A DNA stretch of 64,000 nucleotides from an uncultured candidate division Zixibacteria bacterium (GTDB taxonomy: Bacteria > Zixibacteria > MSB-5A5 > GN15 > FEB-12). How positions within the stretch are numbered: the first letter of the stretch is position 1; every line of letters starts with the position of its first letter. A model generated the notes under the pieces. The model did no database searches. It was not told the DNA's origin and worked only from the letters and a program-made list of their open reading frames with translations. Below, piece after piece: positions 2,199-50,623 of the stretch. Position numbers and translations under genes: made by a program. Location: NCBI GenBank assembly GCA_963806185.1, contig CAWDXE010000007.1:960001-1024000 (forward strand), in the 5' to 3' direction.

Positions 2199-2717
2199 TC
2201 ACGGCATGAGCAGGATAGTTTCTTTGACCTGGGCGTCCATCGGTTGGTTGGCCGGGATAACCCCTTGCCCCCCTTTGATGAGCAAACCAAAGCCGAGAAT
2301 GAAGGAAATAATCTTCTTGTTGCCGCCCTTGGCCACGAGTGGACCGTCGGGTCCGGCCAGCGCAAGCTTACGGTTGTCGGGGGAGTTGTAGAAACCCTTC
2401 GCGTCGAGTTCACCGAGTTCGACCTCGATAGAGCCGGGCTTGCCGGGCTTGCCCGCGGGCTGGACCTTTTTCACCGTAGCCGTGCCGGTGGCTCCTGCCT
2501 TGACGACCGAAATGCCGCCGACAACGATAGAATCAACCAATTTGATCGGGACCTTGTCGCCGACCTTGGCACTGCCGGATGAGACCTTTTCTGTGAAGGC
2601 GACGCGGACCTTGGTGCCGGCGGGCACTTGCACCTGAGCGAAGCCAAGCGCAGTCAGCGCGAATAGCGCAACCAAGATCAGGATGAACATCTGTGCGGAG
2701 CGATAACGTATAGCCAT
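2199..2717 (-). CDS. Exported VirB10/TrbI-like beta-domain protein, last gene of the T6SS operon
   Basis: Signal peptide (ALTALGFAQ), then VPAGTKVRV...SS..AKVGD.V...G...GS pattern, a hydrophobic Gly-flanked segment IISFILGFGLLIKGG and a closing IPAN motif, as in TrbI-like proteins; GGAGG RBS. Confidence 0.6.
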   Translation of the reverse strand: MAIRYRSAQMFILILVALFALTALGFAQVQVPAGTKVRVAFTEKVSSGSAKVGDKVPIKLVDSIVVGGISVVKAGATGTATVKKVQPAGKPGKPGSIEVELGELDAKGFYNSPDNRKLALAGPDGPLVAKGGNKKIISFILGFGLLIKGGQGVIPANQPMDAQVKETILLMP

Positions 2718-2737
2718 GTCGTGACCTCCTGTCGGAA

Positions 2738-4972
2738 CTATTGAATAACGGGCAGAATATCAATCAATTTCTTGTCGAATACGATGGTAACGGACTGCGA
2801 ACCTATGGTCAGCGTTCCTTCCATTTCGAAGAGAGCGAAATCACTATTCAGGATTCTTTTGACTTCGCTTCGCTCGCCCCAGTATTCGTCTTTGCCGTCG
2901 TGATTGTCAGGGTCGAGAGCAATGTGAATCTCATCCCCCGCCTTCCACTTGAGGACGTACGGCTTAGGGAACGTGGAAGTGACAGTCTGCCCCCTGACCC
3001 AGGCGTCGGGTCGCCCCGGTTCTTTCACCATGATGTGCAAGTGGTGACCGGCCGGAATGTTGGTGGCGCGGTAGGCATAGTCGCCGCGCTTTGAGAAAGC
3101 TTCAATTCCCTGGACGTAACGATCAATCTTGGAAATCGCGTTGGCATTATTGGCTGGGTCGACACTCAGCGTCTGACGGGCCTCTTTCAGTTCCCGGACA
3201 GCGCCTTTGACGCGGTACATGAGATCAGTGCTGGCGTTGATGCGGTCGAACAAGCCGCCGATTTCAGAGCCAAGCTGACCGGCTTCCTTGCGCGTCTGCT
3301 GGACGACGGTTTTGGCTTGTACAACCTGTCCCAGGCCGCTGAAAGCCTCGACCAGAGCCGGACCCATTTGCGCCTTGTCCTGAGCGACGCGGTCGCGCAT
3401 CTGCTTGAGCAGTTCGGGATCATCGGGGGCGAAGATCATGCTGCGGAATTTCTGCCACATCCAGACGGCGCGGTCGGCGTCGGTCTTAAGTGTGGAATTC
3501 TCCGGGGCCGCTGAAGCAATGGACTGGAAATTGTCGCCCACTTTGACAAATTCGGAAGCGTCGAGATCGTCGACAAACAACGAATCGCCGCCATCTACTT
3601 TCCGAGACGGCCAGAGGGCGGTGTCGCGAACGATGCCGGTGAATTTGTCGAGCGAGACCTTCAGTTCGCGTTCGAGATCATCCACAGAGGCGGAGGTGTA
3701 TTTGCGATAGATGTCCTGCGCCACGAGGGCGTAGCCGGGGAAGAACTGCTTAACAACGAACGATTTTGAGTACCGTTCGTAGGCATTCCGAATTTGATTG
3801 CGCGGCTCTTTCGGCATGGTAAAGTAATTCGCGCTCGGATAATGTTCCCGGGCCGTGTCCTCCACCCGGGTGGTGAAGGGCAATTGATACCAGAAATGGA
3901 ACATGAAGGGAATCGAGTAGACGATGATCCAGATGGCGGCGACGATCGAGGTCCATTTGGCGACCGTGCGAAACCGGCTGATCGATTTGTTGCGGGCGAT
4001 AGCCTGGAGAATCCAATAGAACGGGGCTTTCACGCCGATGGGCGTAAGTTTGTCCGGCGGACGGTACTTGGAATGACCGACGTCGGAGCCAATTTTGATC
4101 GGCGGCTGGCCGGTGGCCGAGACGAAGAAGATCTGGAAATCCAGGGTCCGTCCCAGCACGACGCGCAGGAGTTCGCGCGATTTTACGAGGATGTCGCGGA
4201 CTTCACCCGCCCAGGTCTGGTTGCGCGTGAGCGCGGGTTCGGTCATGACCTTGGCGACGAAGGTGTCAAAGTCTTCCGAGATGGCGTGCTCATTTTCCGG
4301 AGTAAGCAGAGTGATCTGCGCCTCGTCGCCAAAGCCGGCGAGCGTGTCGGATTTGGTGACCATCAGAGCGATCGGGATAGGAATTCGTCCCTGATGCGGG
4401 GCGATGCGCTCAAGGATGGTGACGAAGGTCTCCACGCGCGAGCGGCAGCCCAGTTCATCGAAGCGCAGTTTGGGATCGAAGACAAAGATCAGGGCGTCAC
4501 AATTGCAGAAGAAGTCGATAGCCTTTTCGCGCTGTTCCGGATTGCCGCCGAGCGACAGGATTTCGCCGGGGAAATCATAGCAGACGACCGGCACCTTGGC
4601 GCTGCCGTTGAGAATCGCCGTGAAGCGCAGGATCAGATCATGCATGGTGGCGTCCGGGAACGATTTATCACCCATGCGTTCAAAGCGAGTGCCGGGACCC
4701 TCGCTGACGGCCCGGCCGGTGATGGCGCGGGTGTTCTTGACCAGTTCGTTGGAAGTGGCCGTGTCGGAAACAGACAGTTGCAGTTCGCCGGCGAAGCGAG
4801 ACTCCTCGTACAGCACGGTGTAGAGAACGGTCTTACCGGTATAGCCGTGGCCGACGATGCCGATCTTGATGCCGGAGGGCCACTGCGTGGTAACCGCTGG
4901 TTTGCCGCCCTTCTTCCCTGAAGCGGCAAGCTTTGCTTTCTTTGAACCTAAGATCAGACTCGAAATATCCAC
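2738..4972 (-). CDS. P-loop GTPase domain + transmembrane helix + periplasmic region; TssM/IcmF-like membrane complex protein (putative)
   Basis: G1 GHGYTGKT, G3 YDFPGE, G4 TKSD(TLAGF), G5-like VSATG; TM WTSIVAAIWIIVYSIPFMFHFW; then a long helical region and a beta-rich C-terminus. Confidence 0.7.
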   Translation of the reverse strand: MDISSLILGSKKAKLAASGKKGGKPAVTTQWPSGIKIGIVGHGYTGKTVLYTVLYEESRFAGELQLSVSDTATSNELVKNTRAITGRAVSEGPGTRFERMGDKSFPDATMHDLILRFTAILNGSAKVPVVCYDFPGEILSLGGNPEQREKAIDFFCNCDALIFVFDPKLRFDELGCRSRVETFVTILERIAPHQGRIPIPIALMVTKSDTLAGFGDEAQITLLTPENEHAISEDFDTFVAKVMTEPALTRNQTWAGEVRDILVKSRELLRVVLGRTLDFQIFFVSATGQPPIKIGSDVGHSKYRPPDKLTPIGVKAPFYWILQAIARNKSISRFRTVAKWTSIVAAIWIIVYSIPFMFHFWYQLPFTTRVEDTAREHYPSANYFTMPKEPRNQIRNAYERYSKSFVVKQFFPGYALVAQDIYRKYTSASVDDLERELKVSLDKFTGIVRDTALWPSRKVDGGDSLFVDDLDASEFVKVGDNFQSIASAAPENSTLKTDADRAVWMWQKFRSMIFAPDDPELLKQMRDRVAQDKAQMGPALVEAFSGLGQVVQAKTVVQQTRKEAGQLGSEIGGLFDRINASTDLMYRVKGAVRELKEARQTLSVDPANNANAISKIDRYVQGIEAFSKRGDYAYRATNIPAGHHLHIMVKEPGRPDAWVRGQTVTSTFPKPYVLKWKAGDEIHIALDPDNHDGKDEYWGERSEVKRILNSDFALFEMEGTLTIGSQSVTIVFDKKLIDILPVIQ

Positions 4973-5006
4973 TGATGTATCCTACTAAGTTGCCCGGAAT
5001 CGATGG

Positions 5007-5957
5007 TCAGCGCGAGCCGGCATCGGTCTTAACCGCAGGTGAATTATTCGCGGGCGACGTTACGTACTCTTCCTGAAATTCCTGCAATTTGTGTTGCGTG
5101 TGTGACGACCAGAGTTTGGGCACCAGAATTGCCAGCGCTATGCTGACAATGATGATCCCGGCATACAACCCGTAAGCCGCTTTGCGCTGGGTCATGGTTA
5201 GCCAGAAATACCGATTACTCGAGAACGAACCCCGGAATTTGCGGCCCATTCCCGAAAATGAGGCTTTGACGCGGTCCCAGAATCCTATCTCAGTGACATA
5301 TCCCCATTCGCCAAAGTACAGGGCGGCCAGTTTGTCGATCTTGCTTTGCTTGTCGAAATACCCCAATTTCTGCAGAGTATACTCGAGAGAATTGCGGTCG
5401 CGCAGCAATTCGTTGCCGAATTCGAGCCGACGCCTGCCGAGTTCGAGTAACTGGTGTGGAAGCGACATCGCCTGCAAGGCCTCGGGCGACAGTCCGGCGT
5501 CAATTGGTGAGCCAAACTTGCTGGCGAAACGGGCGATTTCTCCCAGAAAGAAGACGTGCAGTCGGAAGTTGCCGTTCAGGGAGCCGGTCTGGAACAACTT
5601 CGGCACAAGGTGGTTGGCCATGTACGCAATGTCCTGCTTAATGGGACGGACACCACGACAATATGGGTACGCACGGTTATTCTGACCTTCGACTACAGCT
5701 ACGGACTCGAAATAGGAGACCAGAATCTGAACGGATAACTCACGCAGATCGGACGAATTCAGCGGTTGGGTCTTGATCTTTTCAAACAAGAGCGAGTCGA
5801 CCTCGACCGCCTTCTCCTTCTGGTGCCGCAGGGTGCCGAAAACGGCATAGATGCCATTATATGTTTGAAGAAAAGCCTCGGTCTCGAACTGAGCGTACTT
5901 GGTTTCGTACGTCTCGAGATAGGCGAAGAGGTCATTGATATAGTTCAGTGCGTCCAT
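5007..5957 (-). CDS. Helical cytoplasmic protein with C-terminal TM anchor (TssL/DotU-like topology)
   Basis: 316 aa with a single TM (AYGLYAGIIIVSIALAILVP) near the C-terminus, directly downstream of tssK. Sequence homology to TssL is not evident by eye. Confidence 0.55.
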   Translation of the reverse strand: MDALNYINDLFAYLETYETKYAQFETEAFLQTYNGIYAVFGTLRHQKEKAVEVDSLLFEKIKTQPLNSSDLRELSVQILVSYFESVAVVEGQNNRAYPYCRGVRPIKQDIAYMANHLVPKLFQTGSLNGNFRLHVFFLGEIARFASKFGSPIDAGLSPEALQAMSLPHQLLELGRRRLEFGNELLRDRNSLEYTLQKLGYFDKQSKIDKLAALYFGEWGYVTEIGFWDRVKASFSGMGRKFRGSFSSNRYFWLTMTQRKAAYGLYAGIIIVSIALAILVPKLWSSHTQHKLQEFQEEYVTSPANNSPAVKTDAGSR

Positions 5958-5981
5958 GCCAGCTGGTCCTTAACTATCAAC

Positions 5982-7419
5982 TCACACCGTGTAAACCGAG
6001 AGATCCGACTTGCGCATAGCCGACAATTTATCGGCAATAGCGGCGCCGGAAACAATCAACGTGAAGCGCCGAGCCGACGGGTGGCGATCCATACCGTCGG
6101 GCCTGAGCACAACTTTGCTGCCATACGAGACCGAGTCGATGACCACCGGGTCGACTTGCCCGAGGCCGGTGGACTTCGTTGATACCGAACTTGGCGCGCA
6201 TGCCGGACCACTCTCCAGCCGAGAGCAGTTCCTTGGCTACAAATACCAGTGCATCGGATACGGCCATCGGTTGGGCGAGATTGATCGATAAGTAGGTCAA
6301 TTCGCCGATCCGTTCCACTTTGTGCTCGCCGAACGCGGCCAGACGATAGGTGCGACCGTTGTAGGTGAGCGTTTCTTCGACAACGGCCCCGCGGTCGAGC
6401 TTGACCGGATCTTCCTGAGCCAGGAAACCGAGCACGCCGCGTAGTCGAGCCAGGATGTCGTCGATAGCTGCGAGCCCTAATGCTATTTGACGATGATCAT
6501 AGTCGGCCAACAGGAAAGTGTCGACGGCGGCCTCGAACGTGCGAACGTCGCCTTCCCCCTGCCGCGAGAAAAACTTCTCGTTGAGGTGGTCGCGCAATCT
6601 GGGCTGGAGCAAGAGGGCAGTGCGATAGAGACGGAAGAGCCTCTTGAGGAGAGCGACCATTTCGGCCGGATGCCCGGCGTTGCGCGTGGTGATCAAGCTG
6701 TCGGCGAACGCGGCGGTATGAGTGGCGCAGGCGAACAGCGCCTCGCGGACGGCCATTTGCAACTCGGAATCGGCAGGAGCCGCCGCAACCTTCTGATAGC
6801 CGGTGGCCGCTAATTTGAGAAGATTCTCTATGCGATTGCGGAATTCCTGAGCCTTGGCCATGAGTCGGGCGTCAGCCGACAAGGAGAGGCACGGAGGAAT
6901 ATAGCGATCTGAAATAGCTACCGAACCGCCGGCGACATTGATCTCGGCGACTTGCAGATAGTGTCCAACCGGAAGATCGGGTGGCTGACTCAAATGAAGT
7001 CGGTAATCAAAGGCGCGATACGGCGGCCTTGGAATATCTTCTCCGGGATCCGGCTGGCCCGCCTCACGTTTCGCCTGAGGCGACAGGCTGATATAGACCG
7101 GTACAGCGGCGTCGGACACTCGAGTATCGGCCTTCACCACGGGTTCGGTGGCGGGGTTGATTTCAACCACGCAGTAATCGGATGTAAGGGCCTGACAGCG
7201 CACTACCTGAACGGCCAGCGTAGAGCCGCTGAGGCTCAAGTGGAGGCTGAGCGAGGGCTCGCCGGAGGACGATTTGGCCGCCAGACCGTAATAGTCCCCT
7301 CCGCGCAGCGCATACCAGCGCACGAGGTTCTCAAAGTAAGCTTCCTGGTCGCGAAGGTGCTGCTCGCTCATGAGCATACCATCCTGCCAGTTTACAGAAA
7401 GAAGTCGAAATTCACTCAT
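5982..7419 (-). CDS. tssK: T6SS baseplate subunit TssK (apparent +1 frameshift near 6175)
   Basis: N-terminal VNWQDGMLMSEQHLRDQE, VVRCQALT and YIPPCLSL motifs. After ~6175 the alternative frame reads STGLGQVDPVVIDSVSYG...YTV* to a stop at 5982. Confidence 0.8.
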
Positions 7420-7479
7420 CGGAAACGTCACATGCGTTAAATGTTCAGTCCGCAATCTACGGACAGTTTATGGTCGGTG

Positions 7480-8433
7480 TCAAGACACCTTTGCCCGCAT
7501 CTGTCTATCGTTCTTTGTTTTGGCCAAACGGGCAGTATAGCCCAGACGATTGAGTCGATTTGGACCGGCGAGCCGACCGGCCGTAGGTAGACTGGCCACC
7601 CGCACGCGGCAGTTCATCCCCGCAGGCAGACAGACAGACAGCACCTCGTCCACCTTCCTCCGCAGGGGGTGGTTTGGCAGGAGGTCGGCAACCTGGTTCG
7701 GTGGGACATCGTGCACCGTCACCTCAAGAGAGGTATCGCACTCTGAGAAACTATTGCCCAGCACAGATTCGTGCCCCAGCGTATTCTGGTTCTGACCGAG
7801 TCTCCAGCGGAGTGCCTCAGGAGTCTCATGTCGGCTTTCAACGTTTTCCTGTATGGTAAAGCGAAAGCCAAAAAGGGCCTGGAGAAATCGTTCGACAAAG
7901 CGGGGGTTACCGCCCCAGTGGTAGAAGCCGGGCATAGACTCGGCCCAGACGCGCAGAGCATTGAGATCGGATTCCCCGACAGCGGATTGGTCAAACAACT
8001 GCAAGTAACGGGTCAAGTGGTGCTCGGACAGGATGCTGAAATTATAGGCCAGCGGCACGAGGACTGCCATCGCCTCAGCGTGCATAACCGCGGCGTCGAA
8101 GGGCGCCATGAAGCGGCGGGCATTATCTTCCCACTCGCCGGTACGATCGATATTGCCGGCCAGACCGTAGAAAAATTGGTACGGGAGAATATCAACGGCA
8201 CTGGCGAAGCCAACGTTTAGCGTAATGATCGAACTCGGGTAAAGCTCGGCACCCGGCGGTGGGTCCTGTTCCTGGATTTCACCACGGTAGTTGCCGGAGC
8301 TGCCCACAGCCAGGAATTGCATCTGGTGTGCCTCGACACCCAGTCGCTCCAGGATGATCAAGGCGACGGGTAGCGTGACAGGAGCACGTCGGTTTGAAAG
8401 ATTGGGCATGAGTTGCAGGCTCACCGGGCTCAT
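7480..8433 (-). CDS. tssG: T6SS baseplate subunit TssG with N-terminal PASTA-like domain
   Basis: ARRFMAPFD, WGGNPRFVERFLQALFG and LG.ESVLGNSF motifs; located after tssF with an ATGA overlap. Confidence 0.75.
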   Translation of the reverse strand: MSPVSLQLMPNLSNRRAPVTLPVALIILERLGVEAHQMQFLAVGSSGNYRGEIQEQDPPPGAELYPSSIITLNVGFASAVDILPYQFFYGLAGNIDRTGEWEDNARRFMAPFDAAVMHAEAMAVLVPLAYNFSILSEHHLTRYLQLFDQSAVGESDLNALRVWAESMPGFYHWGGNPRFVERFLQALFGFRFTIQENVESRHETPEALRWRLGQNQNTLGHESVLGNSFSECDTSLEVTVHDVPPNQVADLLPNHPLRRKVDEVLSVCLPAGMNCRVRVASLPTAGRLAGPNRLNRLGYTARLAKTKNDRQMRAKVS

Positions 8434-10079
8434 CGAGTTATCACTTCCACCTTGTATCGAGTATTGACGGCGGATCGAGCGGTGAGGAATCTCATCAGAC
8501 GATCGCGCGTCAGTTCAAGTTCCACTTCGGAGAGAAAATCATCCGCCTTGACATGGGCCTCCACCACAAGACACCGGCGCATACCGCGCTCGCCGCGTTC
8601 CACTCCCGGCCGGCAGTTGACTCTGGAGATTCGGGGATCAAAAGACGCGGTCCAGCGCTGAATGTCGGCGAAGGAGAGGGCGCGATCGCGCCCGCGCAGG
8701 CGAGCGGCAACTTCGGCCATCAATTGTTCTTCGTTGCGAGCCGGGACGGCTCCTTTAGACGGAAGCAGATTGGCCACGCTGGTGATACCGGGGTGAGGTG
8801 TGAACATCTCGTTTATTTTGCCGGGATCGATACCGTTGGCTTTGGGGCCAAGGGTCACACCGTAGAAGACGGTCAGTGATTCAGGGATGACATCGGCGGT
8901 CGGCGGAATCTCAATCCAGACGACGATGTGGTCTCTCCGTTCCTCCGTTGAGTACGTGTACATCTCCGGAAGAGACGAGTAGTGGCTACGCGTGCCGTAT
9001 TCGGTGCCTCGGGAGTCGACGACCCGGGAGATGCCGAGGACCTGTTCTGAGGGCTCAGGAAGTTCCATCTCAATGACGCGATTGGTGCCGGTGTGCTTGA
9101 ACAACGAGAGTTCATCCTTGTTGACGACGACGCAGCAATCAGTAAGCAATCGAGGCGTTTCGGCCAGGGCGCGGCGGTCGCCGCCAGCCGGCAGGTCAAT
9201 GCGCAGCCAGAAGAGCTTCTCGGCATCGTAGGGCATGGCAATACCTCTACGGGCGAGTTCTTCGCGAGTGTCTTCAGATATTTGGGATGGATCCCATTTT
9301 TCCACAAAGGATTCCGGGAGCCCGAGAAACTGTTCCTGCAGAATAGCGAACAGGTCATTGGTCGAGCGGAAGCCGCCCCACTGGCGGTCGATCAGCTCGT
9401 CCTTCAATTCTGCATTGCGAGAACCCGGACAGAAGCCGAATTCCTCGCGGAACCGCCCGGTGGCATCCGCGGGCAACCAGTTTCCCCAGATGATCTGTTT
9501 GGTGGCTTGAGGTTGGCCGTGAACAAACATCTGCGCTCCGGCCAACTGATGCGGGCGGCCATCGAAAGCCAGCCCAACCAGCAGGAAGCCCTGTCCCCGT
9601 CCGGGGATTTTGGCAGCCGTGGTCGAAGAAGCCAGCAGGTCGACTGCGACCTGATCGACGACGGCAAACATCTGGCGAACGGTCGTCTTGCAGAGACGTT
9701 CCGGCTTGAAAGCGGAGAAGTAGAAGGTATTCCCCCCGCGCCGCTTTTCCTGGTAGGAGAACTTGGTATTGACGTCGATCTCAACTACCGGGTCCAGGAG
9801 TTGACACTGCAGTACGGAGAAGGCGGGAACCGGCCAGCGGCTGATTTCGGGATACATCGACTGGATGAGCGCCTTGGTGGCGCGATCCCAGACCTCTTCA
9901 ACTCGTTTCTCGATTGTGGAAAGCTGATAGGCGTAGAGCTGCATCAGCATGCGCAGGACCGGGTCCAGTCGTTCGGCCGATTCCGGTGTTTCCGGATTCA
10001 TTCGCCGAAGCTGCCGGTGCATTTCGCGGAAGATTTCGTCGTGGGCTCTCGCCCGTCCTTCAATAGGTGTGCCCGCCAT
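8430..10079 (-). CDS. tssF: T6SS baseplate subunit TssF (T6SS-iii type)
   Basis: DPVLRMLMQLYAYQL...P...RWPVPAFSVLQ N-terminus and LRGRDRALSFADI C-terminal motif. Confidence 0.85.
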   Translation of the reverse strand: MAGTPIEGRARAHDEIFREMHRQLRRMNPETPESAERLDPVLRMLMQLYAYQLSTIEKRVEEVWDRATKALIQSMYPEISRWPVPAFSVLQCQLLDPVVEIDVNTKFSYQEKRRGGNTFYFSAFKPERLCKTTVRQMFAVVDQVAVDLLASSTTAAKIPGRGQGFLLVGLAFDGRPHQLAGAQMFVHGQPQATKQIIWGNWLPADATGRFREEFGFCPGSRNAELKDELIDRQWGGFRSTNDLFAILQEQFLGLPESFVEKWDPSQISEDTREELARRGIAMPYDAEKLFWLRIDLPAGGDRRALAETPRLLTDCCVVVNKDELSLFKHTGTNRVIEMELPEPSEQVLGISRVVDSRGTEYGTRSHYSSLPEMYTYSTEERRDHIVVWIEIPPTADVIPESLTVFYGVTLGPKANGIDPGKINEMFTPHPGITSVANLLPSKGAVPARNEEQLMAEVAARLRGRDRALSFADIQRWTASFDPRISRVNCRPGVERGERGMRRCLVVEAHVKADDFLSEVELELTRDRLMRFLTARSAVNTRYKVEVITR

Positions 10080-10082
10080 AGT

Positions 10083-10457
10083 TTAACCCAGATTGTAGAA
10101 GGCTTCAAACGGACGCAAGTGGCCGCCATCAGTGTATTCGCCGGTAACCTTGACGGCTACACCAATGCTGCGCGTCCCCACCGAAGTCGGTTGTTCGAAG
10201 GAGACAACGACGCTGGAAAGGCGGCGTTCGTACTTCTGAATAGCGTCACGGAGTCCGGAGCGAAGTTCAGATTTATTAGATGCCTGAATGTCGGCGTATT
10301 CGCGATCCCAGATGACCGAGCCGTATTCAGGATCGAACGGCAGTTGGCCCTTGCGAGTGGAGAGAATCAGACCAATCGAATACATGATTGACTCCTGCAG
10401 CGAAACGGACGGAAGATAGCCGTCGCGCAGGACGAGTGGAAGACCGAGGTAACGCAT
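10083..10457 (-). CDS. tssE: T6SS baseplate wedge TssE (gp25-like)
   Basis: LILSTRKGQLPFDPEYGSVIWD and AIQKYERRL gp25 motifs; TAATG overlap with vgrG. Confidence 0.9.
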   Translation of the reverse strand: MRYLGLPLVLRDGYLPSVSLQESIMYSIGLILSTRKGQLPFDPEYGSVIWDREYADIQASNKSELRSGLRDAIQKYERRLSSVVVSFEQPTSVGTRSIGVAVKVTGEYTDGGHLRPFEAFYNLG

Positions 10458-12319
10458 TAGTTAATCTTCACCGGCATACCCTGCACGGTGAGCGGGCCGT
10501 TGGCCTTGACCGTTCCAGTAGCGGCGCCCTCGACCGACAGAGTCGTGCCCTTCACGGTACACGAGGCGGTAGCCTCGAGATTGGCGTTGCCGGTGGCGGT
10601 TAGTTTCATGTCAGCCGTGGCCTTGGCCGTAAAATTGGCTTTTGCGGTTTCTTCGATATTGCCGCCGGCGGAGACTTTGACATCCTTGCTGGTTGCCTCA
10701 ATCGTGACCGACTCCTGAGCCTTTAGCGTGATGTTCTTCGCAACCAGGTTGATGTCTTCTTCACTCTCGATGGTAATTGAGATGCCGCCACTGACGGCAT
10801 CGAGAATTATGCAATTCTTGGCCTTGGTCTGGCGGATAATGACTTTTTCGTTGCCCGGCGAATCGACGAAGAGGATTTCGTTGCCGGAGACGGTTCGCAA
10901 GATCTTGATCACGTCAGAACCGCTCTCGGAGGCCGCCACCTCGCTTCCATCGACTATGCCCTTTGGCGGCAAATCCTTGCCGTTGTGCATGACGCCGAGT
11001 ATAACCGGCCGATCGGGGTCGCCGTTTTCGAAGCCGACGAGCACTTCATCGCCGACGTCCGGAAACGAAAACCAGCCGCGATCATTGCCGGCATCAGGCC
11101 GGGCCATGCGGCACCAGAAGAGCGACTCGTTCGCCATCCACGGGAGCGTGACCCGTATCCGGCCCATCTTCTCGGGATCGTTATTGTCAGCCACCAACCC
11201 GTACTGCAAATGCGTGGACCGATTCGTTGGGTCGTTGACCGGCGCAAAGGCAAGATCGAGAGGAACAGCCTGGAAACGGTTATGATACTGACCGCTATCG
11301 TTGATCACATGCGTTATTTCCGTGAGCCAGTACATGCCTCCGACGTTGCCGAGTTTGGCAATTTCGACACAACCGCCGAGGCCGATCGAGAGATCAATCG
11401 ATTGACCAATGGCCGTGACCAGTCGTCCCGCAGCACCGGAGCTCTGATTCTGCACAACTGCCTGCACATGGCTGGGAGAAGCTACTGAAGGGACATAAGA
11501 GAAATTGGCGGCGCTGTTGTAGATGGTTTTGGAGGCGTCGACGGAGGCCTTGATCAATCCGGACACCGCGATGGAAGGGAATTTCTGGGTATGCGACACC
11601 CATTCTTTCTTCTTGGGGTCCATCAGTTGAGCGTCGAAACCCAGCGATGTCGTGCCGAGATCGAGCATAAAGCTTCCCAGCGTTTCCTCAAAAGGCAGTC
11701 GCACCGACGTGGAAGACGAAGCCTTGCCGACGATGAATTCCTTGCCGGTGTAATAGGCATACAGACCATTACGAGCAGCCAGCCGGCAGATGTACTCATA
11801 ATCGGTTTCGTTGAACTGATGCAGTTGTTCGCTTTGTTCTGACGTGGAGGTTATCACCCCCTTGGTGATATCGTATTCGCCGAGGATAGTATCAATGGCC
11901 TGAGAATCCGTCTGATTGAACAGAAGACGGTTGTGCCTGACACTGTCGAGCAAGCAGGTGGGGCTTTGGGCCTCGATCAAGATCCAGTTGGCACCATCGA
12001 CGGAATTCTCTAAAGCGACACGAGTAATGAGACCGATGAAAGTCAGGCTTTTGTCACTTCCGGTGAGATTATCGAATGGCTTGATGGTAACCGTGATTTT
12101 TTCGCCGAGACCGTTGGTGTACGGCGTCGGGTCGATCGGGTCATTTGGGCCGAGTGCACCGACCTCCTTGACGCGCACGTTCAGGACGTGATGACCATCG
12201 ATGCGCTGGATCAGTTCCACGCCGGAGACGGATGCCTCGAGGGTCGTTTGACCGATGCGCACGTCGCAGAAGACGGAGATTTCGATCTTGGGCGTATACG
12301 GCGAATTGGATTGCTTCAT
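10457..12319 (-). CDS. vgrG: T6SS spike VgrG (gp27/gp5-OB, short beta-helical tip, no effector extension)
   Basis: QFNETDYEYICRLA; DNNDPEKMGRIRVTLPW; PDVGDEVLVGFENGDPDRPVILG. An in-frame TTG at 12322 is an alternative start. Confidence 0.93.
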   Translation of the reverse strand: MKQSNSPYTPKIEISVFCDVRIGQTTLEASVSGVELIQRIDGHHVLNVRVKEVGALGPNDPIDPTPYTNGLGEKITVTIKPFDNLTGSDKSLTFIGLITRVALENSVDGANWILIEAQSPTCLLDSVRHNRLLFNQTDSQAIDTILGEYDITKGVITSTSEQSEQLHQFNETDYEYICRLAARNGLYAYYTGKEFIVGKASSSTSVRLPFEETLGSFMLDLGTTSLGFDAQLMDPKKKEWVSHTQKFPSIAVSGLIKASVDASKTIYNSAANFSYVPSVASPSHVQAVVQNQSSGAAGRLVTAIGQSIDLSIGLGGCVEIAKLGNVGGMYWLTEITHVINDSGQYHNRFQAVPLDLAFAPVNDPTNRSTHLQYGLVADNNDPEKMGRIRVTLPWMANESLFWCRMARPDAGNDRGWFSFPDVGDEVLVGFENGDPDRPVILGVMHNGKDLPPKGIVDGSEVAASESGSDVIKILRTVSGNEILFVDSPGNEKVIIRQTKAKNCIILDAVSGGISITIESEEDINLVAKNITLKAQESVTIEATSKDVKVSAGGNIEETAKANFTAKATADMKLTATGNANLEATASCTVKGTTLSVEGAATGTVKANGPLTVQGMPVKIN

Positions 12320-12327
12320 CAATAGTC

Positions 12328-12357
12328 AAAGAGGGCGGCGGAATACCACCGCCCCTC
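12328..12357 (-). terminator. Intrinsic terminator/attenuator hairpin between hcp and vgrG
   Basis: GC-rich inverted repeat (gagggcggcg-gaata-ccaccgcccctc) followed on the minus strand by TTT. Confidence 0.6.
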
Positions 12358-12371
12358 CATAGTCGGTAAGG

Positions 12372-12776
12372 TTATTCCTGCCACCGGTTATCGATGCTGG
12401 CGTCAGCAATGCTGAGCGTCTGGCACGAAATCTGAAACTCCTCGTAGACCTGCTGGTCGGGACTCTCTTTGACGTGCGGAATAGTCTCCTTGTACGACGT
12501 AATGAAACCGTCGGTCCAGGTCAACTCTTTCATGACCGAGTCGTCGGGGTTGCGGAAGATGACCTTGCCGCCCTTCCAGTTCGGCTTTGCCGAGTTCATG
12601 GCCCAGGAAGCCATGGTGGTGTCAGCCGTCGATTCGCGGATGACGGTAATCACGCCGGCGTGGGCGCGGTCCGAGGGGCGACCGGTTTCGTCTTTCGCGG
12701 TATAAAGTACGTACGTGACCGAGTAGACGTTCGGATACGCGACTCCCTCAACTTCCAAAGTAGGCCGTCTTGCCAT
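12372..12776 (-). CDS. hcp: T6SS tube protein Hcp/TssD (Bacteroidota T6SS-iii type)
   Basis: 134 aa; DETGRPSDRAHAGVITVIRES, GKVIF...MKELTWTDGFITSYKE and FQISCQTL motifs; AAGGAG RBS. Confidence 0.88.
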   Translation of the reverse strand: MARRPTLEVEGVAYPNVYSVTYVLYTAKDETGRPSDRAHAGVITVIRESTADTTMASWAMNSAKPNWKGGKVIFRNPDDSVMKELTWTDGFITSYKETIPHVKESPDQQVYEEFQISCQTLSIADASIDNRWQE

Positions 12777-12853
12777 TTCCTTACTCCTTCTTCAGTGTAT
12801 AAATACCTGTCATTCTGTTGTCGTAAACAGTCGACCATGCTTCCGGCGGTCGT

Positions 12854-14281
12854 TCAGCTCTTGTCTTTGACGCCGGTCTTGCCGTCCTCGTTCCACGCCG
12901 CGAATTCGATAAAGAAGGTGCGGGCGGGATATTTCGGATTGAGCATGACCTTGATGTCGATTTCCTGACGCTTGCGCATTTCCTGGTCGGCGAAGATTTC
13001 GATTTTGTAATCTTCCAGGATCGAATCGGGGCCGGATATCGCCTTCATGAATTTCTCGATGTCGGTGCGCAGGGTGACGAGGAACTTCTCGTCGATTACG
13101 GTAAACGTCTGCTTATTGAGATAATTGCGGAGCGTCTTGTAGACGTAATCATAAGTCCGCCGGATCGAATAGACATTGAATGTCTCCTTGGTAAACAGGG
13201 TAGCGGCGCCCATCGCAACGGCAGAACCCTCGAAGTTTACCATGGGGTTGACGCCCTTTTCGTTGATCTTGCCGGCGTCGACCTGATTTACCTTGAAACG
13301 AAGGTACTTGGCGTCGCTGATCTTGCCGTGCTTGTAACCGGCCATCGGCTGCTGCATACCGGCCGTGGTGTCGCCCTGATACATCTTACCGGCGACGGAG
13401 GCTGACGGCGGCACCCACATGTCGTCATCTTCGTACTGATTAGCCGTGCGGGCAAGCACGTAGTTGGCGAAGATGGCCACATATTGCTTGTAATTGTCGA
13501 CGCCGGGCAGGTTGGCATAGTTCGGATCGTCAAGCATCTCCATGACCTCTTCGAACTTCTCGAAGTTTGGCAGATCGGTGAGCACCTGACACTTGTTGGC
13601 GAAGCCCAACTGCCGGGCGAAGTTGTCGACATTCTCGACACTGCCAAGATAGCCGGGAACAACGGCCATACCGAAGGCCTCCTTGATGCTGAATTCCCGA
13701 TAGAGGTCGGCGACGGCCTTGCAGAGTTGTTCGAACTTCTCTTTGTCGTTCGGGTCGGTCAGTTCTTCGGCCGACACATTGGCGAACCAGACGTTCACTT
13801 TTTCGTCAGGTTCCTGCTGGGCGTTGGCGAAGAACTTGTCGACGGCCCGGTAGGCGAGTTCGAGCTCGCGAGCAGTGCGATGGACGGTCTTCATGTTTTT
13901 GGAAAGGTTGGTCTCGAGTTTGGCCGCGGCCTCGGCGAGGCCCTTGCGCACGTCGTCGGGCGACTTGCTCGTGGACAGATGCTCCATCCAGAGTTTCATA
14001 CGATGGGCGAGAGTCTTCCGGCGGGCGGCAAATTCGGGTTTGTTGAGAAACTCCTTACGTTGAAACTCCTTTTTGGGGTCGAGCCATTCGACGCCGCTGA
14101 CCAGATCGTTGTCGGGAGTTTTGAACGACGGCATCAGAGCAGCCAGCTTGCTGTAGTCGCCGAACGAATCGGACAACAACGCCGCAAACTGGGCATCTGA
14201 AAGTCGGGCTTCAGTTTTCGCCGGAGCCTCGGCAAACGCCGGCTGTTCACCAGCCGATTCTTTTTTGACTTCATCAGACAT
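12854..14281 (-). CDS. tssC: T6SS contractile sheath large subunit TssC (T6SS-iii/DUF5458 type)
   Basis: RELELAYRAVDKFFAN, VVPGYLGS, VPPSASVAGKMY, QPMAGYKHG and PKYPARTF motifs. Confidence 0.9.
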   Translation of the reverse strand: MSDEVKKESAGEQPAFAEAPAKTEARLSDAQFAALLSDSFGDYSKLAALMPSFKTPDNDLVSGVEWLDPKKEFQRKEFLNKPEFAARRKTLAHRMKLWMEHLSTSKSPDDVRKGLAEAAAKLETNLSKNMKTVHRTARELELAYRAVDKFFANAQQEPDEKVNVWFANVSAEELTDPNDKEKFEQLCKAVADLYREFSIKEAFGMAVVPGYLGSVENVDNFARQLGFANKCQVLTDLPNFEKFEEVMEMLDDPNYANLPGVDNYKQYVAIFANYVLARTANQYEDDDMWVPPSASVAGKMYQGDTTAGMQQPMAGYKHGKISDAKYLRFKVNQVDAGKINEKGVNPMVNFEGSAVAMGAATLFTKETFNVYSIRRTYDYVYKTLRNYLNKQTFTVIDEKFLVTLRTDIEKFMKAISGPDSILEDYKIEIFADQEMRKRQEIDIKVMLNPKYPARTFFIEFAAWNEDGKTGVKDKS

Positions 14282-14296
14282 ATTGTGTCACCTCGG

Positions 14297-14737
14297 TTAT
14301 TCGCTCAACAGATCCACATAGTGCTGCATGATCTTCAGCAGCGCTTCTTTTTTTGCCTTATCCTCAAGCGTCTTGAGCAGCGCCTTGTTCTTTTTGAGCT
14401 GCTGTTCGAGATCATTGAGGATTTCCTTACCGTAGTACGTGTCACGCAGGTAGTCGTTCTTCTCAATCAGCTCTTTGGAGGTGAAATCCTTCATCGATTT
14501 GACATCGAAGTGGGCGTTGACCTGCTGGCCGTCGGTCGTTTCCAGTTGAGCTTCGAAGTTCGGCTGGAATTTTTCGAAGACCTCTTTCATGTTGGAGCAA
14601 CGGACCGGCGTGACGTCCGGGTTGTCTTCGGTATTCAACCGTGCCGCATAGAGCGTCTTGTTTGACTGCAACAACTCGACCGGAATCGAATCATCCTTTT
14701 TCACTTTCTCGGTGGCCCCGAGAACAAATTTGGCCAT
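14297..14737 (-). CDS. tssB: T6SS contractile sheath small subunit TssB (T6SS-iii type)
   Basis: NKTLYAARL, EVFEKFQPN, MKDF and QLKKNKAL motifs; directly before tssC; GGAGG RBS. Confidence 0.85.
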   Translation of the reverse strand: MAKFVLGATEKVKKDDSIPVELLQSNKTLYAARLNTEDNPDVTPVRCSNMKEVFEKFQPNFEAQLETTDGQQVNAHFDVKSMKDFTSKELIEKNDYLRDTYYGKEILNDLEQQLKKNKALLKTLEDKAKKEALLKIMQHYVDLLSE

Positions 14738-14757
14738 ATCCAGCCTCCAGGTCGTTA

Positions 14758-15876
14758 CTAGGCGTCTGCCCGTTTTTCTGTCGTAAAAATGTAGGCGTCA
14801 TTCTGCACATCGACCAGGACCCGGTCTCCTGACGCGATGGCGCCGGTGATGATGTCAACAGAAAGACGGTTTATTATATCGCGTTCAATTGTGCGTTGCA
14901 TGGGGCGCGCCCCAAGGTCGGGGACGTAGCCGTCGTGAGAGAGCTTGGTTTTCGCAGCCGGCGTCAGGACGGCCGTGATGTTCTGCTCTTTCAACATGTT
15001 GTTTACGGTCTCGAATTCCAGGACGGCGATCTTTTCGATCTGCTGCTGCGTGAAGGAGTGATACACGATGATATCGTTGAGCCGGTTGAGGAATTCGGGG
15101 CGGAACTTGCCGAAGAGGAAGCTGCGGACTTCTTCCATGTCGACCTCGCGTCCTTCGCGATCGGCCTCGAGAATGCGATCGGCGGCGTAGTTTGATGTCA
15201 GTACGACCATGCAGTTGGAGAAGTTGACCGTTCGCCCCTGACCGTCGGTAAGACGGCCATCGTCAAGCAACTGCAAAAGGACGTTGAACACGTCGGGGTG
15301 CGCCTTCTCGACTTCGTCGAAGAGGATAACCGAAAACGGTTTCCGTTTGACGGCTTCGGTCAGAAGGCCACCCGCCTCATAACCGACATAGCCGGGCGGC
15401 GCGCCGATCAACTTGGCGACGGAGTGGGGTTCCATGAACTCGGACATATCCATGCGGACCATGGCATTCTTATCGTCGAAGAGAAACTCGGCGAGCAGTT
15501 TCGGGAGGTAGGTCTTCCCCGTTCCGGTAGGGCCGAGGAAGAGAAAAGAGCCGATCGGGCGATTGGCCAGCTTAAGACCGGCGCGCGCTTTCCGCACGGC
15601 GTTGCAGATCGCCTTGATGGCGTTTTCCTGCCCGATGATCTTCTTCTGCAGGAACCCCTCCATGTTGACCAGACGGTCCTTTTCGGCGGTCATCATCTTG
15701 GAGAGCGGAATGCCTGTCCTCCGCGCCACGACCGCGGCAATATCTGACGCGTCGATGGTCTGATCGAGCTTGCCGACGACTGACTGCAACAACTCAAAGC
15801 GAGCCCGCTTGGCGTCAAAGGACGCCTTCAGCTGTTCGACGCGAACCGGTGTGGGCTTGATCTTCTTTTCGCTCAT
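14758..15876 (-). CDS. clpV: ClpV/ClpB-family AAA+ ATPase, C-terminal half (second nucleotide-binding domain)
   Basis: RPIGSFLFLGPTGTGKT, GAPPGYVGYE, LFDEVEKAHPDV and GARPMQR motifs; own ATG with GGAG 7 nt upstream, overlapping the previous stop (ATGA). Confidence 0.9.
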   Translation of the reverse strand: MSEKKIKPTPVRVEQLKASFDAKRARFELLQSVVGKLDQTIDASDIAAVVARRTGIPLSKMMTAEKDRLVNMEGFLQKKIIGQENAIKAICNAVRKARAGLKLANRPIGSFLFLGPTGTGKTYLPKLLAEFLFDDKNAMVRMDMSEFMEPHSVAKLIGAPPGYVGYEAGGLLTEAVKRKPFSVILFDEVEKAHPDVFNVLLQLLDDGRLTDGQGRTVNFSNCMVVLTSNYAADRILEADREGREVDMEEVRSFLFGKFRPEFLNRLNDIIVYHSFTQQQIEKIAVLEFETVNNMLKEQNITAVLTPAAKTKLSHDGYVPDLGARPMQRTIERDIINRLSVDIITGAIASGDRVLVDVQNDAYIFTTEKRADA

Positions 15877-17331
15877 ACGCCGGCTCCTGCTGCATCGATA
15901 CGATGCCCCCAGAGTTCATCGAGACGATTGACCGTGGCCTCGAATGTCTCGACGGCGGTTTTCAGTTTGCCGTACTCTTCGGATTCGGGATCAGGCTCTT
16001 TGCCGCCGAACGCAGCCAATTGCTTCTCGATCTCCTTCGCCTGCGCCTGCAGGGCGACGATCTTGTCCTTTCCGAATTCCTGCTTCACGGCATATTCCGA
16101 CGCGGCTTCGTCGATGATATCCAGCGCGATATCAGGGAGATTCCGTTCGGCCAGATAGCGGGTGGCGAACTTCACGGAGCCAACGATGGCGTCCTCAGTG
16201 TAGGTAATCTTGTGGTGCTCCTGGTACTTGGGAACGACGCCGCGGACAATGCGGATGGCTTCATCAGGAGAGGGTGGCTCAACCTTGACGCGTTCAAAGC
16301 GACGGTCCAGGGCCTTGTCTTTTTCAAGATGCTTGCTGTACTCTTCTTCCGTGGTCGCACCGACGAGGCGTATCTGACCGCGAGCCAGCGCCGGTTTAAG
16401 GAGATTGGCGGCATCCATGCCTCCGCCGGTTGAGCCGCCGCCACAAATCGTGTGGATTTCGTCGATGAAGAGCACAATGCGCCCGCCAGACTTGACGACG
16501 TCGCCCACGAGGGCCTTGAACCTCTCCTCAAATTCGCCTTTGTACTTGGCACCAGCGACGAGAGAACCCATGTCGACGCCCATGACTTTGACGCCGTGCA
16601 GGGAGCGCGGGACTTTTTCCTCAACTACGGCCTGAGCGAAGCCCTCGACGATGGCGGTTTTCCCTACACCGGCACCGCCGACGAGGACGGGACTGTTTTT
16701 GCGACGACGAAGCAGAATTTGAATGACTTGCTGGATTTCTTTGTCACGTCCGACGCAGATGTCAAATTGGCCGGCGGCCGCCTGATTGGTGAGATCTTCG
16801 CAATAACGGAGCGTCCCCGAGACCTCTTTGGAACCGGAATCAGAGTCACCGGATGACGGAGCGGTCGAACCGGCAGTCGCGATTTGCGCAACGGCCTTGG
16901 CCTCGGCGATCGCCTGGTAGATGTCTTCAGTGGTAACGCCGAGCCGATCACGCAGCACGCCGGGGAGCTTTGAGCGAACGTCGAAGGCGGCGATGAAAAT
17001 ATGCTCGGGCTCCACCAGCGCGTCGTATAGTTTGGCCTTCTCCTCAAGAGCCTGCGCCAAGGCATTCTGGGCCGCAGGGGACATTGTCAGGTTCTCTCTG
17101 ACGGAACTCTTCGACGGCTGTTCCTTCAGGAATTCTTCGACGATCGACTCAAGGTGGGCCCGGCTCTTCCCCAATTGCGAGAGGATGGACTCCAACCCTG
17201 ACCCTTCGTGGCGAATGGCAGCGACGAGGAGATGTGGCAAGTCAATTTCGGGGTGCCGGAAGGCGACGGCCACTTCCCTGGGCGGTGCGTATAACAGATC
17301 GAGAATCGGACGAATAATTGGCTATATCCAT
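15873..17331 (-). CDS. clpV: ClpV/ClpB-family AAA+ ATPase, N-terminal half (Clp-N repeats + first nucleotide-binding domain); apparent +1 frameshift near 17277
   Basis: VGRDKEI, GGAGVGKTAIVEG, LFIDEIH and DKALDRRF motifs. ATG 17331 gives MDIANYSSDSRSVIRTAQ, which joins EVAVAFRHPEID if one G of the GGG run is removed. Confidence 0.88.
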
Positions 17332-17525: not shown

Positions 17526-18215
17526 TCATCTGGCGTACAGGTCAAACCAGGAAAGATTCAACTCCTTTGCCCAGGACATAACGGCCCGACCAGGCGAAGC
17601 CTGCACTTTGAGAGTGACAAAACCGATCTGCCGGCCATCGCACCACCAATGCAGGTGGTCGATGTGATCCGAGTGATCGGGGGCGGTCGGGGGTTGCGTC
17701 TGAATCCCCAAAGTCAAACCGTCGTGGGTTTCCGTCTGCTGCGGTTCAAAACGAAGAGATTCCGTCAACACGGCCGCAGCTACTTTTTTGACGAATTCCA
17801 GGGTTGGTTGGTCGGGTGGCTTGGGCCAGTCCAGGGTGATGCTGATGAGACAGAAAGTCTGACCGATGTCGATCTGCTTTCCCGCCCATTGGTACCGGAC
17901 TCGCACGATATCGCACCGGTTTTGACGATCTCCGGCAAATGCAATATAGCGGGCATCGCCGGGTGGCTGGGCGGAATCGACCATGATTTGGTCAATCCAG
18001 GAAGTGGCAATCTCGACGGCTTCTTTCTGGCCAGGTGCGCGACCGGGTGTGGTACCAGCGGTCAGCGCATCCTCCTCCGTTTTGGTCAAGGAGACAAGTT
18101 GGGCACTTACGTTGTCAAATGGCATAGCCGATTCCTTCCCTTTCTCGGTTGGATTTCCGCAAACGGCCAGGACAAAAGCAATGGCAGTCAGGGTGGCAGC
18201 CTGGCACGGCTTCAT
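17526..18215 (-). CDS. Putative periplasmic immunity protein
   Basis: N-terminal signal MKPCQAATLTAIAFVLAVC (atypical lipobox); ATGA overlap with the upstream LysM effector. Confidence 0.55.
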   Translation of the reverse strand: MKPCQAATLTAIAFVLAVCGNPTEKGKESAMPFDNVSAQLVSLTKTEEDALTAGTTPGRAPGQKEAVEIATSWIDQIMVDSAQPPGDARYIAFAGDRQNRCDIVRVRYQWAGKQIDIGQTFCLISITLDWPKPPDQPTLEFVKKVAAAVLTESLRFEPQQTETHDGLTLGIQTQPPTAPDHSDHIDHLHWWCDGRQIGFVTLKVQASPGRAVMSWAKELNLSWFDLYAR

Positions 18216-19549
18216 AGCGGCGGCATATGCGACCACGCCTCGGGATCCCATATTGCCTCCGGACAGGGGCCTGGATTCTTGCAGAAGCCGGCGGCGTTAC
18301 TCACCCAGACCGTGGCCACAACCATGGCCTCCATGGCCGCGGCCGGGGAATCATAACAGCTTTCGCCGATGCAGTAGTATTTCTCGCCGTATTTCACCGT
18401 TCCTTCAAAATTGTTCCACCCCTGGTAGGCCGTCTTGCGTTTCGAGTGATCGCGAAAGATAAGCTTCTCGCTCGCTCCGTGCGGAGGATCAGGATTTGGG
18501 TGGGTAGCCGCCACACCGCGCGACTCGTTGGCTTTGCCTGAGCGGTCGAATTTACCGCTTCCCTTCAGCATGCCGGGATACAGATGCCCGAGCACAAATT
18601 TGTCCGGCAGGCCGAGCATTTGACAACTCTTTTGGAAGAGGTCGGCCAGGGCGTTGCATTCGGCACGTACTCCGCCGAAGATCTTCCAGACAGGATTGGG
18701 ATACGGTGCGCCCAGAAAGTAGTGGCCGATCTCCTGGCCGGAAATTACTTTGAAGACGGCATCAACATACCCCTGTTCATCGCGGGGAGACTCGGGATTA
18801 TCCGTGAAATATTTATCCACCCATGTTGTGAGCGCATACAGCCGCTTGACGGTCGGGGCGCTGCCGTACGGCTTGTCGTAGGTCAGCATGATATGGTGAG
18901 GGCCGGTGGGTCCGAGGTCAAACTTACGCTTGCCGATGTCGACCTCCCAGGACAACTGGACCTTCCAAGTCGCGATTTCATCCCACAATGGGGCTTCAGC
19001 TTCGAGGGTGGCCTCACCCCGGCCGTTTTCAATCTTAAATTCCTGGTCAACGAAAGACACTTTGAGCTGGTCACCCTTGACTCGGACGATGGCCTGCTCG
19101 GTGACGTGGTCGGCAGGCAGTGCTTCCACTTCGACAGTGATCTTGAGTTTCTGATGCTTGGTGTGTGAGATAGGGGAGTTGAGACGAGGGGTCCACTCCG
19201 GTTTGGGGAAGCGGTTTCCCGTATCGGTCCAGTCACGTTTGTTGTCGAGGAGCAGGTCGTGATCGGAGACGAACTTCAGGCCCTTAATGGAGAGGGATTC
19301 TATCTTGCGTGGGGCACGCCGGAAGAAACGAAAGATGCCGCCCGTGTGACTTCGGGCGCGATTGGGAGTGGCAGGAATCCAGACACGCTCGCCAACCGAG
19401 AGTTCGTTATGGTCAGGGTGTTTCTTTCGAAAGCTCTCGTTCCGGTCGTGGTAGTAGATCACTTTCCAGTCGGCCAGACCGTAGGTTCGGGCCAGGCGTG
19501 AGAGCGACTCTCCACGCTCGACAACATGATAGAATCCACCGTTGCTCAT
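18212..19549 (-). CDS. LysM-domain putative T6SS effector with transglutaminase/papain-like Cys domain
   Basis: LysM: YHVVERGESLSRLARTYGLADWKVIY...LSVGERVWIP. C-terminal AECNALADLFQKSCQMLG motif; no signal peptide. Confidence 0.65.
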   Translation of the reverse strand: MSNGGFYHVVERGESLSRLARTYGLADWKVIYYHDRNESFRKKHPDHNELSVGERVWIPATPNRARSHTGGIFRFFRRAPRKIESLSIKGLKFVSDHDLLLDNKRDWTDTGNRFPKPEWTPRLNSPISHTKHQKLKITVEVEALPADHVTEQAIVRVKGDQLKVSFVDQEFKIENGRGEATLEAEAPLWDEIATWKVQLSWEVDIGKRKFDLGPTGPHHIMLTYDKPYGSAPTVKRLYALTTWVDKYFTDNPESPRDEQGYVDAVFKVISGQEIGHYFLGAPYPNPVWKIFGGVRAECNALADLFQKSCQMLGLPDKFVLGHLYPGMLKGSGKFDRSGKANESRGVAATHPNPDPPHGASEKLIFRDHSKRKTAYQGWNNFEGTVKYGEKYYCIGESCYDSPAAAMEAMVVATVWVSNAAGFCKNPGPCPEAIWDPEAWSHMPPL

Positions 19550-20448: not shown

Positions 20449-20459
20449 GACTGCCGCAA

Positions 20460-20891
20460 CTAATCTATGGGTGTAAAACTCTCTAAGATTTTCTCTACCT
20501 GACGACCGATGGTCTTGGCCGTTTTCTTGGAGAAATTGGCCGTGATGGTATAGGCGATACCGCCCGTAATAATGAAGATCAGTTTGCGGATTTCCGCCTG
20601 TTGGGGAGCCGGCGTGGTGGCATAGGCGAATTCATAGGCGGTAAGGCCATTTCCCAATTCCCGTTCTTCGGATTTCAGTGTCCTGGCATCGGGACGGGAC
20701 GCGAGCGTCTGGTCAATGTGCGAACGCGCGTATTCGCGAAGGGACTGCTTTCCGGCCTCGCGATCGAGTGTAATGACGAGGGTATGGTACACGCCTGACT
20801 CCTGGGGACCGCTGAAGGTGTACACGGTCTGCTCGTGCCAGTCGGATGGGAGTTTGAGATCGAAGCCGGGGTGTCGTCCTGATTTCGCCAT
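20460..20891 (-). CDS. DUF1795/DcrB (PsbP-like, Eag-type) chaperone-family protein
   Basis: FDLKLPSDWHEQTVYTF...SLREYARSHI...AYTITA...ILESF pattern; located in the effector operon. Confidence 0.75.
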   Translation of the reverse strand: MAKSGRHPGFDLKLPSDWHEQTVYTFSGPQESGVYHTLVITLDREAGKQSLREYARSHIDQTLASRPDARTLKSEERELGNGLTAYEFAYATTPAPQQAEIRKLIFIITGGIAYTITANFSKKTAKTIGRQVEKILESFTPID

Positions 20892-20893
20892 GA

Positions 20894-21673: not shown

Positions 21674-21674
21674 T

Positions 21675-27046: not shown

Positions 27047-27071
27047 GATTAGACCTCCTATGTCCAGTTAG

Positions 27072-49797: not shown

Positions 49798-49845
49798 GGG
49801 GGGGATTAACCAATGATCACAGTTTTTACAGAGTGCTATTGAAAA

Positions 49846-50572: not shown

Positions 50573-50623
50573 CTTTGAAAAGTATGGCGTGAAAATGCTG
50601 ATCACTATCCCTTGTCGGTACCC

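Follow-up and report, generated by a model that had tools for sequence, protein, structure and literature searches.

A type VI secretion locus of Zixibacteria with a Bacteroidota-type tail and a predicted three-protein membrane complex

Introduction

What anchors the tail of a type VI secretion system (T6SS) when its locus encodes a Bacteroidota-type tail and no recognized membrane complex? Two unrelated membrane complexes are described, TssJ-TssL-TssM (PF12790, PF09850, PF14331) in T6SS-i and TssNQOPR in the T6SS-iii of Bacteroidota (PMC10781749). The locus studied here lies in a stretch of 64,000 nucleotides (nt), hereafter the window, from an uncultured candidate division Zixibacteria bacterium (GenBank assembly GCA_963806185.1, 82% complete; contig CAWDXE010000007.1, positions 960,001 to 1,024,000). 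An earlier sequence-only reading had described a co-oriented run of clpV (in two parts), tssB, tssC, hcp, vgrG, tssE, tssF, tssG and tssK, followed by three envelope genes for proteins of 316, 744 and 172 amino acids (aa), and had proposed a T6SS-iii tail coupled to a TssL/TssM-like complex. All 13 genes are on the minus strand in the order it gave, and the three sizes are correct (Table 1). The names carried by homologs agree with the Zixibacteria origin that it considered probable.

Our results indicate a T6SS with a Bacteroidota-type tail that is probably anchored, in the manner proposed below, by a three-protein complex unlike both TssJLM and TssNQOPR. The locus likely represents an undescribed T6SS subtype with its own predicted membrane complex. 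Direct observation covers the gene content, tree position, linkage, protein topology, the GTPase fold with its motifs, and the relatedness of the first half of the 744-aa protein to TssM.

Results and discussion

Ancestry of the tail and baseplate

The TssC and TssD proteins matched the Bacteroidota-type Pfam models (PF17541 and PF17642). TssB (PF05591), VgrG, gp25/TssE and TssG were over the cut-offs, and TssF and TssK gave weaker matches (25 bits for the TssK family; TIGR03353 E 6e-16). Matches of TssB, TssE, TssF, TssG and TssK to the proteobacterial NCBIfam models stayed below threshold.

The reference rows of the tail trees came from named plasmid loci (two to four Bacteroidota and six to seven T6SS-i rows), a small sampling that holds no T6SS-ii or T6SS-iv. 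Quick trees of TssK, TssF and TssB joined the rows from Zixibacteria and from the phylum of a Krumholzibacteria-labelled genome to Bacteroidota, against T6SS-i, with a Shimodaira-Hasegawa approximate likelihood ratio test (SH-aLRT) support of 100. A more thorough TssC tree, with 21 rows, supported the union with Bacteroidota at 100/100 and Bacteroidota themselves at 99/99, and placed the new group as their sister at 83/92; a quick TssC tree of 32 rows left the branching order of the new group and Bacteroidota open. The TssK family profile was nearer to TssK-iii (E 7e-31) than to TssK-i (E 1e-16). The T6SS-iii-type tail and baseplate claimed from the letters alone were thus found again in the two Pfam matches and in the trees of TssB, TssC, TssF and TssK, with both TssC and TssF placing the locus with T6SS-iii of Bacteroidota.

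Several features set the locus apart from T6SS-iii of Bacteroidota. TssK is about 482 aa long here and 359-388 aa there, a difference of about 100 aa; ClpV is split in many members here; and the locus type occurs in Zixibacteria and Krumholzibacteria-labelled genomes, whereas PMC10781749 covered more than 20,000 non-Bacteroidota genomes and reports no T6SS-iii among them.

Another genome (G420, L153:5125-18548) has a T6SS-like locus of much greater divergence. Its TssC is 26% identical and sits on a long branch, and the locus then carries different small genes (159, 341 and 219 aa), possibly a further anchor variant.

Conservation of the three distal genes

Of 285 Zixibacteria genomes, 145 had the 744-aa GTPase gene; a TssC match was present in 151 and strong in 145. 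The six weak TssC matches (family f9, E about 1e-6) were excluded from the co-occurrence count. By a count of the listed rows, strong TssC and the GTPase gene occurred together in 143 genomes; two genomes had only TssC and two only the GTPase gene, all of them 58-77% complete.

Gene order was counted in the best 80 of 128 confirmed loci, using those with enough flanking sequence. The GTPase gene had the 316-aa gene on its 5' side in 71 of 72 loci, tssK on that side in 69 of 70, and the 172-aa gene on its 3' side in 65 of 68. The phylum of the Krumholzibacteria-labelled genome had a TssC match in 24 of 201 sampled genomes (21 strong), and the gene order was identical in eight loci that were fetched; two 316-aa homologs bear Eisenbacteria names. 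The linkage of the three distal genes with tssK, a lack of which in related genomes would have spoken against the sequence-only reading, is kept across Zixibacteria and Krumholzibacteria-labelled genomes. Where loci are split (G252, G253, G245 and G170), the 316-aa gene stays next to tssK and the 172-aa gene stays with the GTPase gene, and a 172-aa homolog adjoins the GTPase module even in the deepest lineages fetched.

A scan of named genomes with single proteins gave no confirmed locus; a scan with alignments did yield loci. Matches titled Ignavibacteria, Calditrichota and Deferrimicrobium were rejected as evidence of a wider range, because all four that were checked share their TssC coordinates with genomes of the Zixibacteria set.

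In relatives, a convergent operon that the window lacks often follows the 172-aa gene (L099:12867-19527 and similar). It encodes a kinase, two unknown proteins, a probable outer-membrane barrel and a lipoprotein.

The three envelope proteins

All three distal proteins show envelope topology. The model of the 744-aa protein (predicted local distance difference test score, pLDDT, 87.7) has a Ras-like domain at residues 33-332, a single membrane helix at about 340-362, a helical region at 388-627 and a beta domain at 630-732, and the membrane segment sits on a long helix. In a fold search, residues 32-332 found small GTPases, the best a Rag-like GTPase (Z 15.9, root-mean-square deviation 3.0, 177 residues aligned). 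Of 63 family members, 62 retain Walker A and 59 the G4 guanine-binding motif. TssM was not among the matches listed for whole-chain fold searches, where GTPases filled the listing, and sequence searches of the PDB with profiles of the 316-, 744- and 172-aa families gave no significant match.

Compared with a TssM profile built from seven sequences, the GTPase family aligned over 214 columns (86.6%, E 4.4e-6), and 20 column shuffles reached at most 0.33%. The alignment spans the GTPase core, a helical insert and the membrane helix, which corresponds to the third membrane helix of TssM. This homology is distant and below the Pfam cut-off. The periplasmic parts gave only 0.3% and 0.2% against TssM, so that of the "TssM-like" label in the sequence-only reading the cytoplasmic GTPase insert and the membrane helix received support and the periplasmic half did not. 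The protein is also shorter (744 aa vs 1128-1241 aa in TssM), and its family is without the N-terminal membrane helices that all seven TssM sequences have.

The 316-aa protein has a hydropathy peak at residues 259-287, and its model (pLDDT 90.7) consists of 16 helices and no strands. Its family is small (49 representatives among 1.84 billion). The family profile did not match TssL or TssN (0.2%), no consistent Pfam match appeared across 62 members, with DotU absent from their 25 most frequent matches, and an Atlas search gave no usable match. TssL has a helical fold, and one membrane helix was found in six of seven TssL sequences. The likeness of the 316-aa protein to TssL thus appears to be one of topology only, and the joint "TssL/TssM-like" label of the earlier reading was partly right.

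A true hybrid of T6SS-i and T6SS-iii would have a highly diverged TssL-TssM pair, with the 316-aa protein as TssL and the whole 744-aa protein as a shortened TssM, and the 172-aa protein in place of TssJ. Such a system would account for several features shared with T6SS-i: tssK is followed by a C-terminally anchored helical protein and an NTPase-membrane-periplasmic protein, in the order tssK-tssL-tssM; the TssM alignment continues past the GTPase core to the membrane helix; and a motif flanking G4 is found in 54 of 63 family members and in four of seven TssM sequences. We nevertheless consider this hybrid unlikely, given that neither TssL homology nor periplasmic TssM homology was detected and that the N-terminal helices are missing. 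These negatives against the hybrid are weak, because the reference profiles are small (seven sequences). In a further difference from T6SS-i, the small exported protein has neither a lipobox nor a TssJ match.

The GTPase also resembles another group. The Pfam model DO-GTPase2 (Double-GTPase 2) was the top match in 63 of 63 members, and IcmF-related_N was found in 29 (E<=1). The three genes could accordingly be a Double-GTPase/GAP1 signalling module that was recruited to sense or control firing; the tail would then depend on an unrecognized anchor elsewhere or be tethered to the inner membrane only. Double-GTPase/GAP1 pairs (PF19993, PF20013) are described as membrane-proximal conflict systems in PMC7159879, and a GAP1-N2-like gene does directly follow the GTPase gene in the deep families f5 and f16 and in one genome of the Krumholzibacteria phylum, G346 (Pfam E 1.6e-6 to 0.004 in four proteins, plus profile matches). 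This explanation seems improbable to us: no GAP1-like gene occurs in the window's genome or in any of 80 close loci of its clade, whereas the three envelope genes are retained; the operon has no other conserved envelope genes; and the TssM-specific alignment extends past the GTPase core. Unlike the Double-GTPase/GAP1 systems, the locus has a single GTPase with a periplasmic extension within a T6SS operon, the Walker B glutamate is not general, and the window's protein scores below the Pfam cut-off. IcmF and TssM are not mentioned in the available main text of PMC7159879. We infer that TssM and the Double-GTPases are related to each other, with the 744-aa protein as a compact member of the group.

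Several observations were made on the GAP1-like proteins and their lineages. In G346, the GTPase gene and the 172-aa homolog flank the gene of a GAP1-like protein of 1008 aa that has a single membrane helix (L158:12108-15134), and one GAP1-like protein of family f5 has a weak DENN match (E 0.0065). Homology of the GAP1-like gene to TagF was not supported, with a profile match of 0.11% only (three TagF sequences). In family f5, an FHA gene and a Ser/Thr kinase gene lie immediately 5' of clpV (L047:853-2327, L141:1534-3062), a pair reminiscent of the Fha/PpkA control of T6SS-i.

The 172-aa protein has an N-terminal hydrophobic leader, and none of 37 family members has a lipobox. The family has a conserved 14-residue hydrophobic stretch at the position of the glycine zipper of its relatives, and its profile reaches glycine-zipper/TrbI proteins. 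Of 22 profile-linked proteins scanned, seven list TrbI (best E 3.6e-7). The profile aligned with 14 linked proteins over 142 columns (99%), these 14 having been chosen by the same profile, and an Atlas search gave a TrbI lead at 0.79 only. VirB10 assembles into a ring in the outer membrane, to which it contributes a helical hairpin. A VirB10-like fold (PF03743) seems likely for the 172-aa protein, judged from the transitive link across the whole domain and from the hydrophobic insert at the zipper position. Its insert is much shorter than that of TrbI/VirB10, and it lacks both the inner-membrane anchor and the long linker. A paralog of the family that stands alone (G000:C1:450775-451416) combines a complete glycine zipper with a leader resembling that of a lipoprotein.

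Search for known membrane anchors

In the window's own genome, DotU/TssL, IcmF-N/TssM, TssJ and ImpA_N/TssA gave no family match, and the positive controls were detected; the lack of tssA and tssJ noted before thus extends from the locus to this 82%-complete genome. The TssN, TssO and TssR families had no match there either, in searches whose positive controls were silent. Among four relatives assembled as single contigs, TssN was absent from all (positive control detected at 309 bits), as was DotU (positive control detected). When real TssN, TssQ, TssO, TssP and TssR proteins from two Bacteroidota loci were used as queries, the loci fetched from relatives gave no tblastn match; in the own genome, the TssP matches cover PKD repeats only, and there was one TssR match (E 0.005).

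The supposed lack of tssNOPQR holds for TssN and is less firm for the other four: TssQ and TssO had no match but evolve rapidly, the TssO and TssR family searches had silent controls, TssR gave its one weak match, and TssP had PKD-only matches. As in T6SS-iii of Bacteroidota, there was no TssA, TssJ or TssL match; unlike there, TssN, TssQ and TssO were not matched. That the locus is an ordinary T6SS-iii with TssNQOPR genes elsewhere or overlooked deserves hardly any credence: such loci are often split and their TssO, TssQ and TssR often unidentifiable (PMC10781749), and the own genome is incomplete with PKD matches to TssP elsewhere, but TssN, nearly ubiquitous in T6SS-iii according to the same source, is absent from all four single-contig relatives and the real queries found nothing beyond these repeats in the fetched loci.

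Proposed mechanism and its implications

In the proposed three-protein anchor, the 316-aa protein would sit in the inner membrane through its C-terminal helix and dock the TssK head of the baseplate, by analogy with TssL/TssM in T6SS-i and with TssN in Bacteroidota (PMC10781749). The 744-aa protein would be a compact TssM-like scaffold whose cytoplasmic GTPase may time assembly through GTP turnover, and whose helical stalk and beta domain would span the periplasm. At the outer membrane, the 172-aa protein would cap the complex as a VirB10-like ring whose hydrophobic hairpins would line or grip the exit; TssJ or TssR occupies this position in other systems. Sheath contraction would then push Hcp-VgrG-PAAR and the effectors through the channel, and the split ClpV would recycle the sheath.

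Several points weigh against this anchor. The genomes compared are related and are non-independent samples, and in some of them the T6SS core is separate from the GTPase and 172-aa genes. Since tssK is frameshifted in this assembly, this copy of the locus may be inactive. Very divergent TssQ and TssO can escape detection (PMC10781749). For the 744-aa protein, Pfam ranks Double-GTPase 2 above IcmF-N, the periplasmic part of about 365 aa is about half that of TssM and has no profile match, and the GAP1-N2 neighbour of the deep lineages resembles conflict systems that are no secretion anchors. For the 172-aa family, none of the 37 members matched TrbI directly, the best-linked protein reached 30.6 bits vs the TrbI cut-off of 35, PDB sequence searches found no VirB10, and a hairpin of 14 residues is short for crossing a membrane.

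The literature searched, which mostly excluded subscription papers, held no description of this system, in line with the undescribed subtype suggested before; loci of this kind could be included in the neighbourhood tables of PMC7159879. Tentatively, the subtype may be a sister to that of Bacteroidota that combines a GTP-switched TssM ancestor from Double-GTPase/GAP1 with a VirB10-like ring from the type IV fold family. According to PMC10781749, T6SS-iii is confined to Bacteroidota, and three scenarios are left for the origin of the two unrelated membrane complexes. A sister lineage whose iii-type tail goes with a relative of TssM and not with TssN speaks for an ancestral anchor of the TssM type that was replaced in Bacteroidota, a scenario that this lineage makes testable. 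If the tentative reading above is true, T6SS-i and T6SS-iii descend from an ancestor that had such an anchor. About half of the sampled Zixibacteria would be credited with a weapon, likely antibacterial, that would escape current subtype models, and the proposed compact three-protein anchor is a target for structural work.

Gene content of the locus

The locus contains the general T6SS set (TssB/TssC, Hcp, VgrG/PAAR, TssE/F/G/K and ClpV), with tssK frameshifted. Its genes reach upstream beyond clpV as far as the PAAR gene, and the GC (guanine plus cytosine) content is uniform along the window.

TABLE 1 Coordinates of the T6SS genes in the window
Feature	Position	Strand	Support
PAAR protein with C-terminal extension (spike tip)	24472..25620	-	PAAR-type N-terminus in sequence
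Variable genes, candidate effector/immunity pairs: 777 + 259 aa, 445 + 241 aa (LysM-like start on 445 aa)	17526..24008	-	
DcrB-like adaptor	20460..20915	-	PF08786 28.5 bits
300-aa protein related to PAAR extension	19546..20448	-	
clpV/tssH N-terminal half (Clp_N and first AAA+ domain)	15873..17273	-	TIGR03345 E 2e-113
clpV/tssH C-terminal half (second AAA+ domain)	14758..15876	-	PF07724 E 1.8e-61
tssB, sheath small subunit	14297..14737	-	PF05591 30.9 bits; tree placement with Bacteroidota TssB
tssC, Bacteroidota-type sheath large subunit	12854..14281	-	PF17541 247.9 bits; tree
hcp/tssD, tube	12372..12776	-	PF17642 75.3 bits
vgrG, spike	10457..12322	-	PF04717, PF05954, TIGR01646 144 bits
tssE (gp25-like)	10083..10457	-	PF04965 48.8 bits
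tssF, baseplate wedge	8430..10079	-	PF05947 E 0.0013, under cut-off; tree placement with Bacteroidota TssF
tssG, baseplate wedge	7480..8433	-	PF06996 59.2 bits
tssK, frameshift near 6170	5982..7419	-	tblastn with intact relative
316-aa all-helical protein, one C-terminal membrane helix; likely TssK (baseplate) dock	5007..5957	-	
744-aa membrane GTPase, first half TssM-related	2738..4972	-	
172-aa exported protein, TrbI/VirB10-like through transitive sequence links	2199..2717	-	

An intact TssK relative of 482 aa aligned to the window in two frames by tblastn (residues 1-419 and 422-482), and the frameshift cuts off the final 60 or so codons. The two clpV halves overlap by 4 nt. Relatives align with the N half only from their residue 20 onward, and its real start is probably about 57 nt farther upstream than the called reading frame. 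Of 35 fetched loci, 21 encode ClpV as two genes with the break behind the first AAA+ domain, a count on which a sequencing error was rejected as the cause; it is fused in the other 14, namely in families f16 and f17 and most loci of the Krumholzibacteria phylum. The split ClpV is a natural two-chain Clp ATPase.

A relative 43% identical to the window's PAAR protein matches PF05488 at 93 bits, and the DcrB-like gene and the gene related to the PAAR extension recur 5' of clpV in relatives. The variable genes had no family over the cut-off in family-library scans of the window's proteins; their position between PAAR and clpV makes them candidates for effector and immunity roles.

Just 5' of the PAAR gene (25727-29243), and sharing its strand, lie a Ser/Thr kinase gene and a gene for a probable outer-membrane protein. 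Farther along the window (47642-53739) are RecA-like, Y-family polymerase-like and dnaE2-like genes, the last apparently frameshifted near 52900, which we take to be an imuABC-type mutagenesis cassette.

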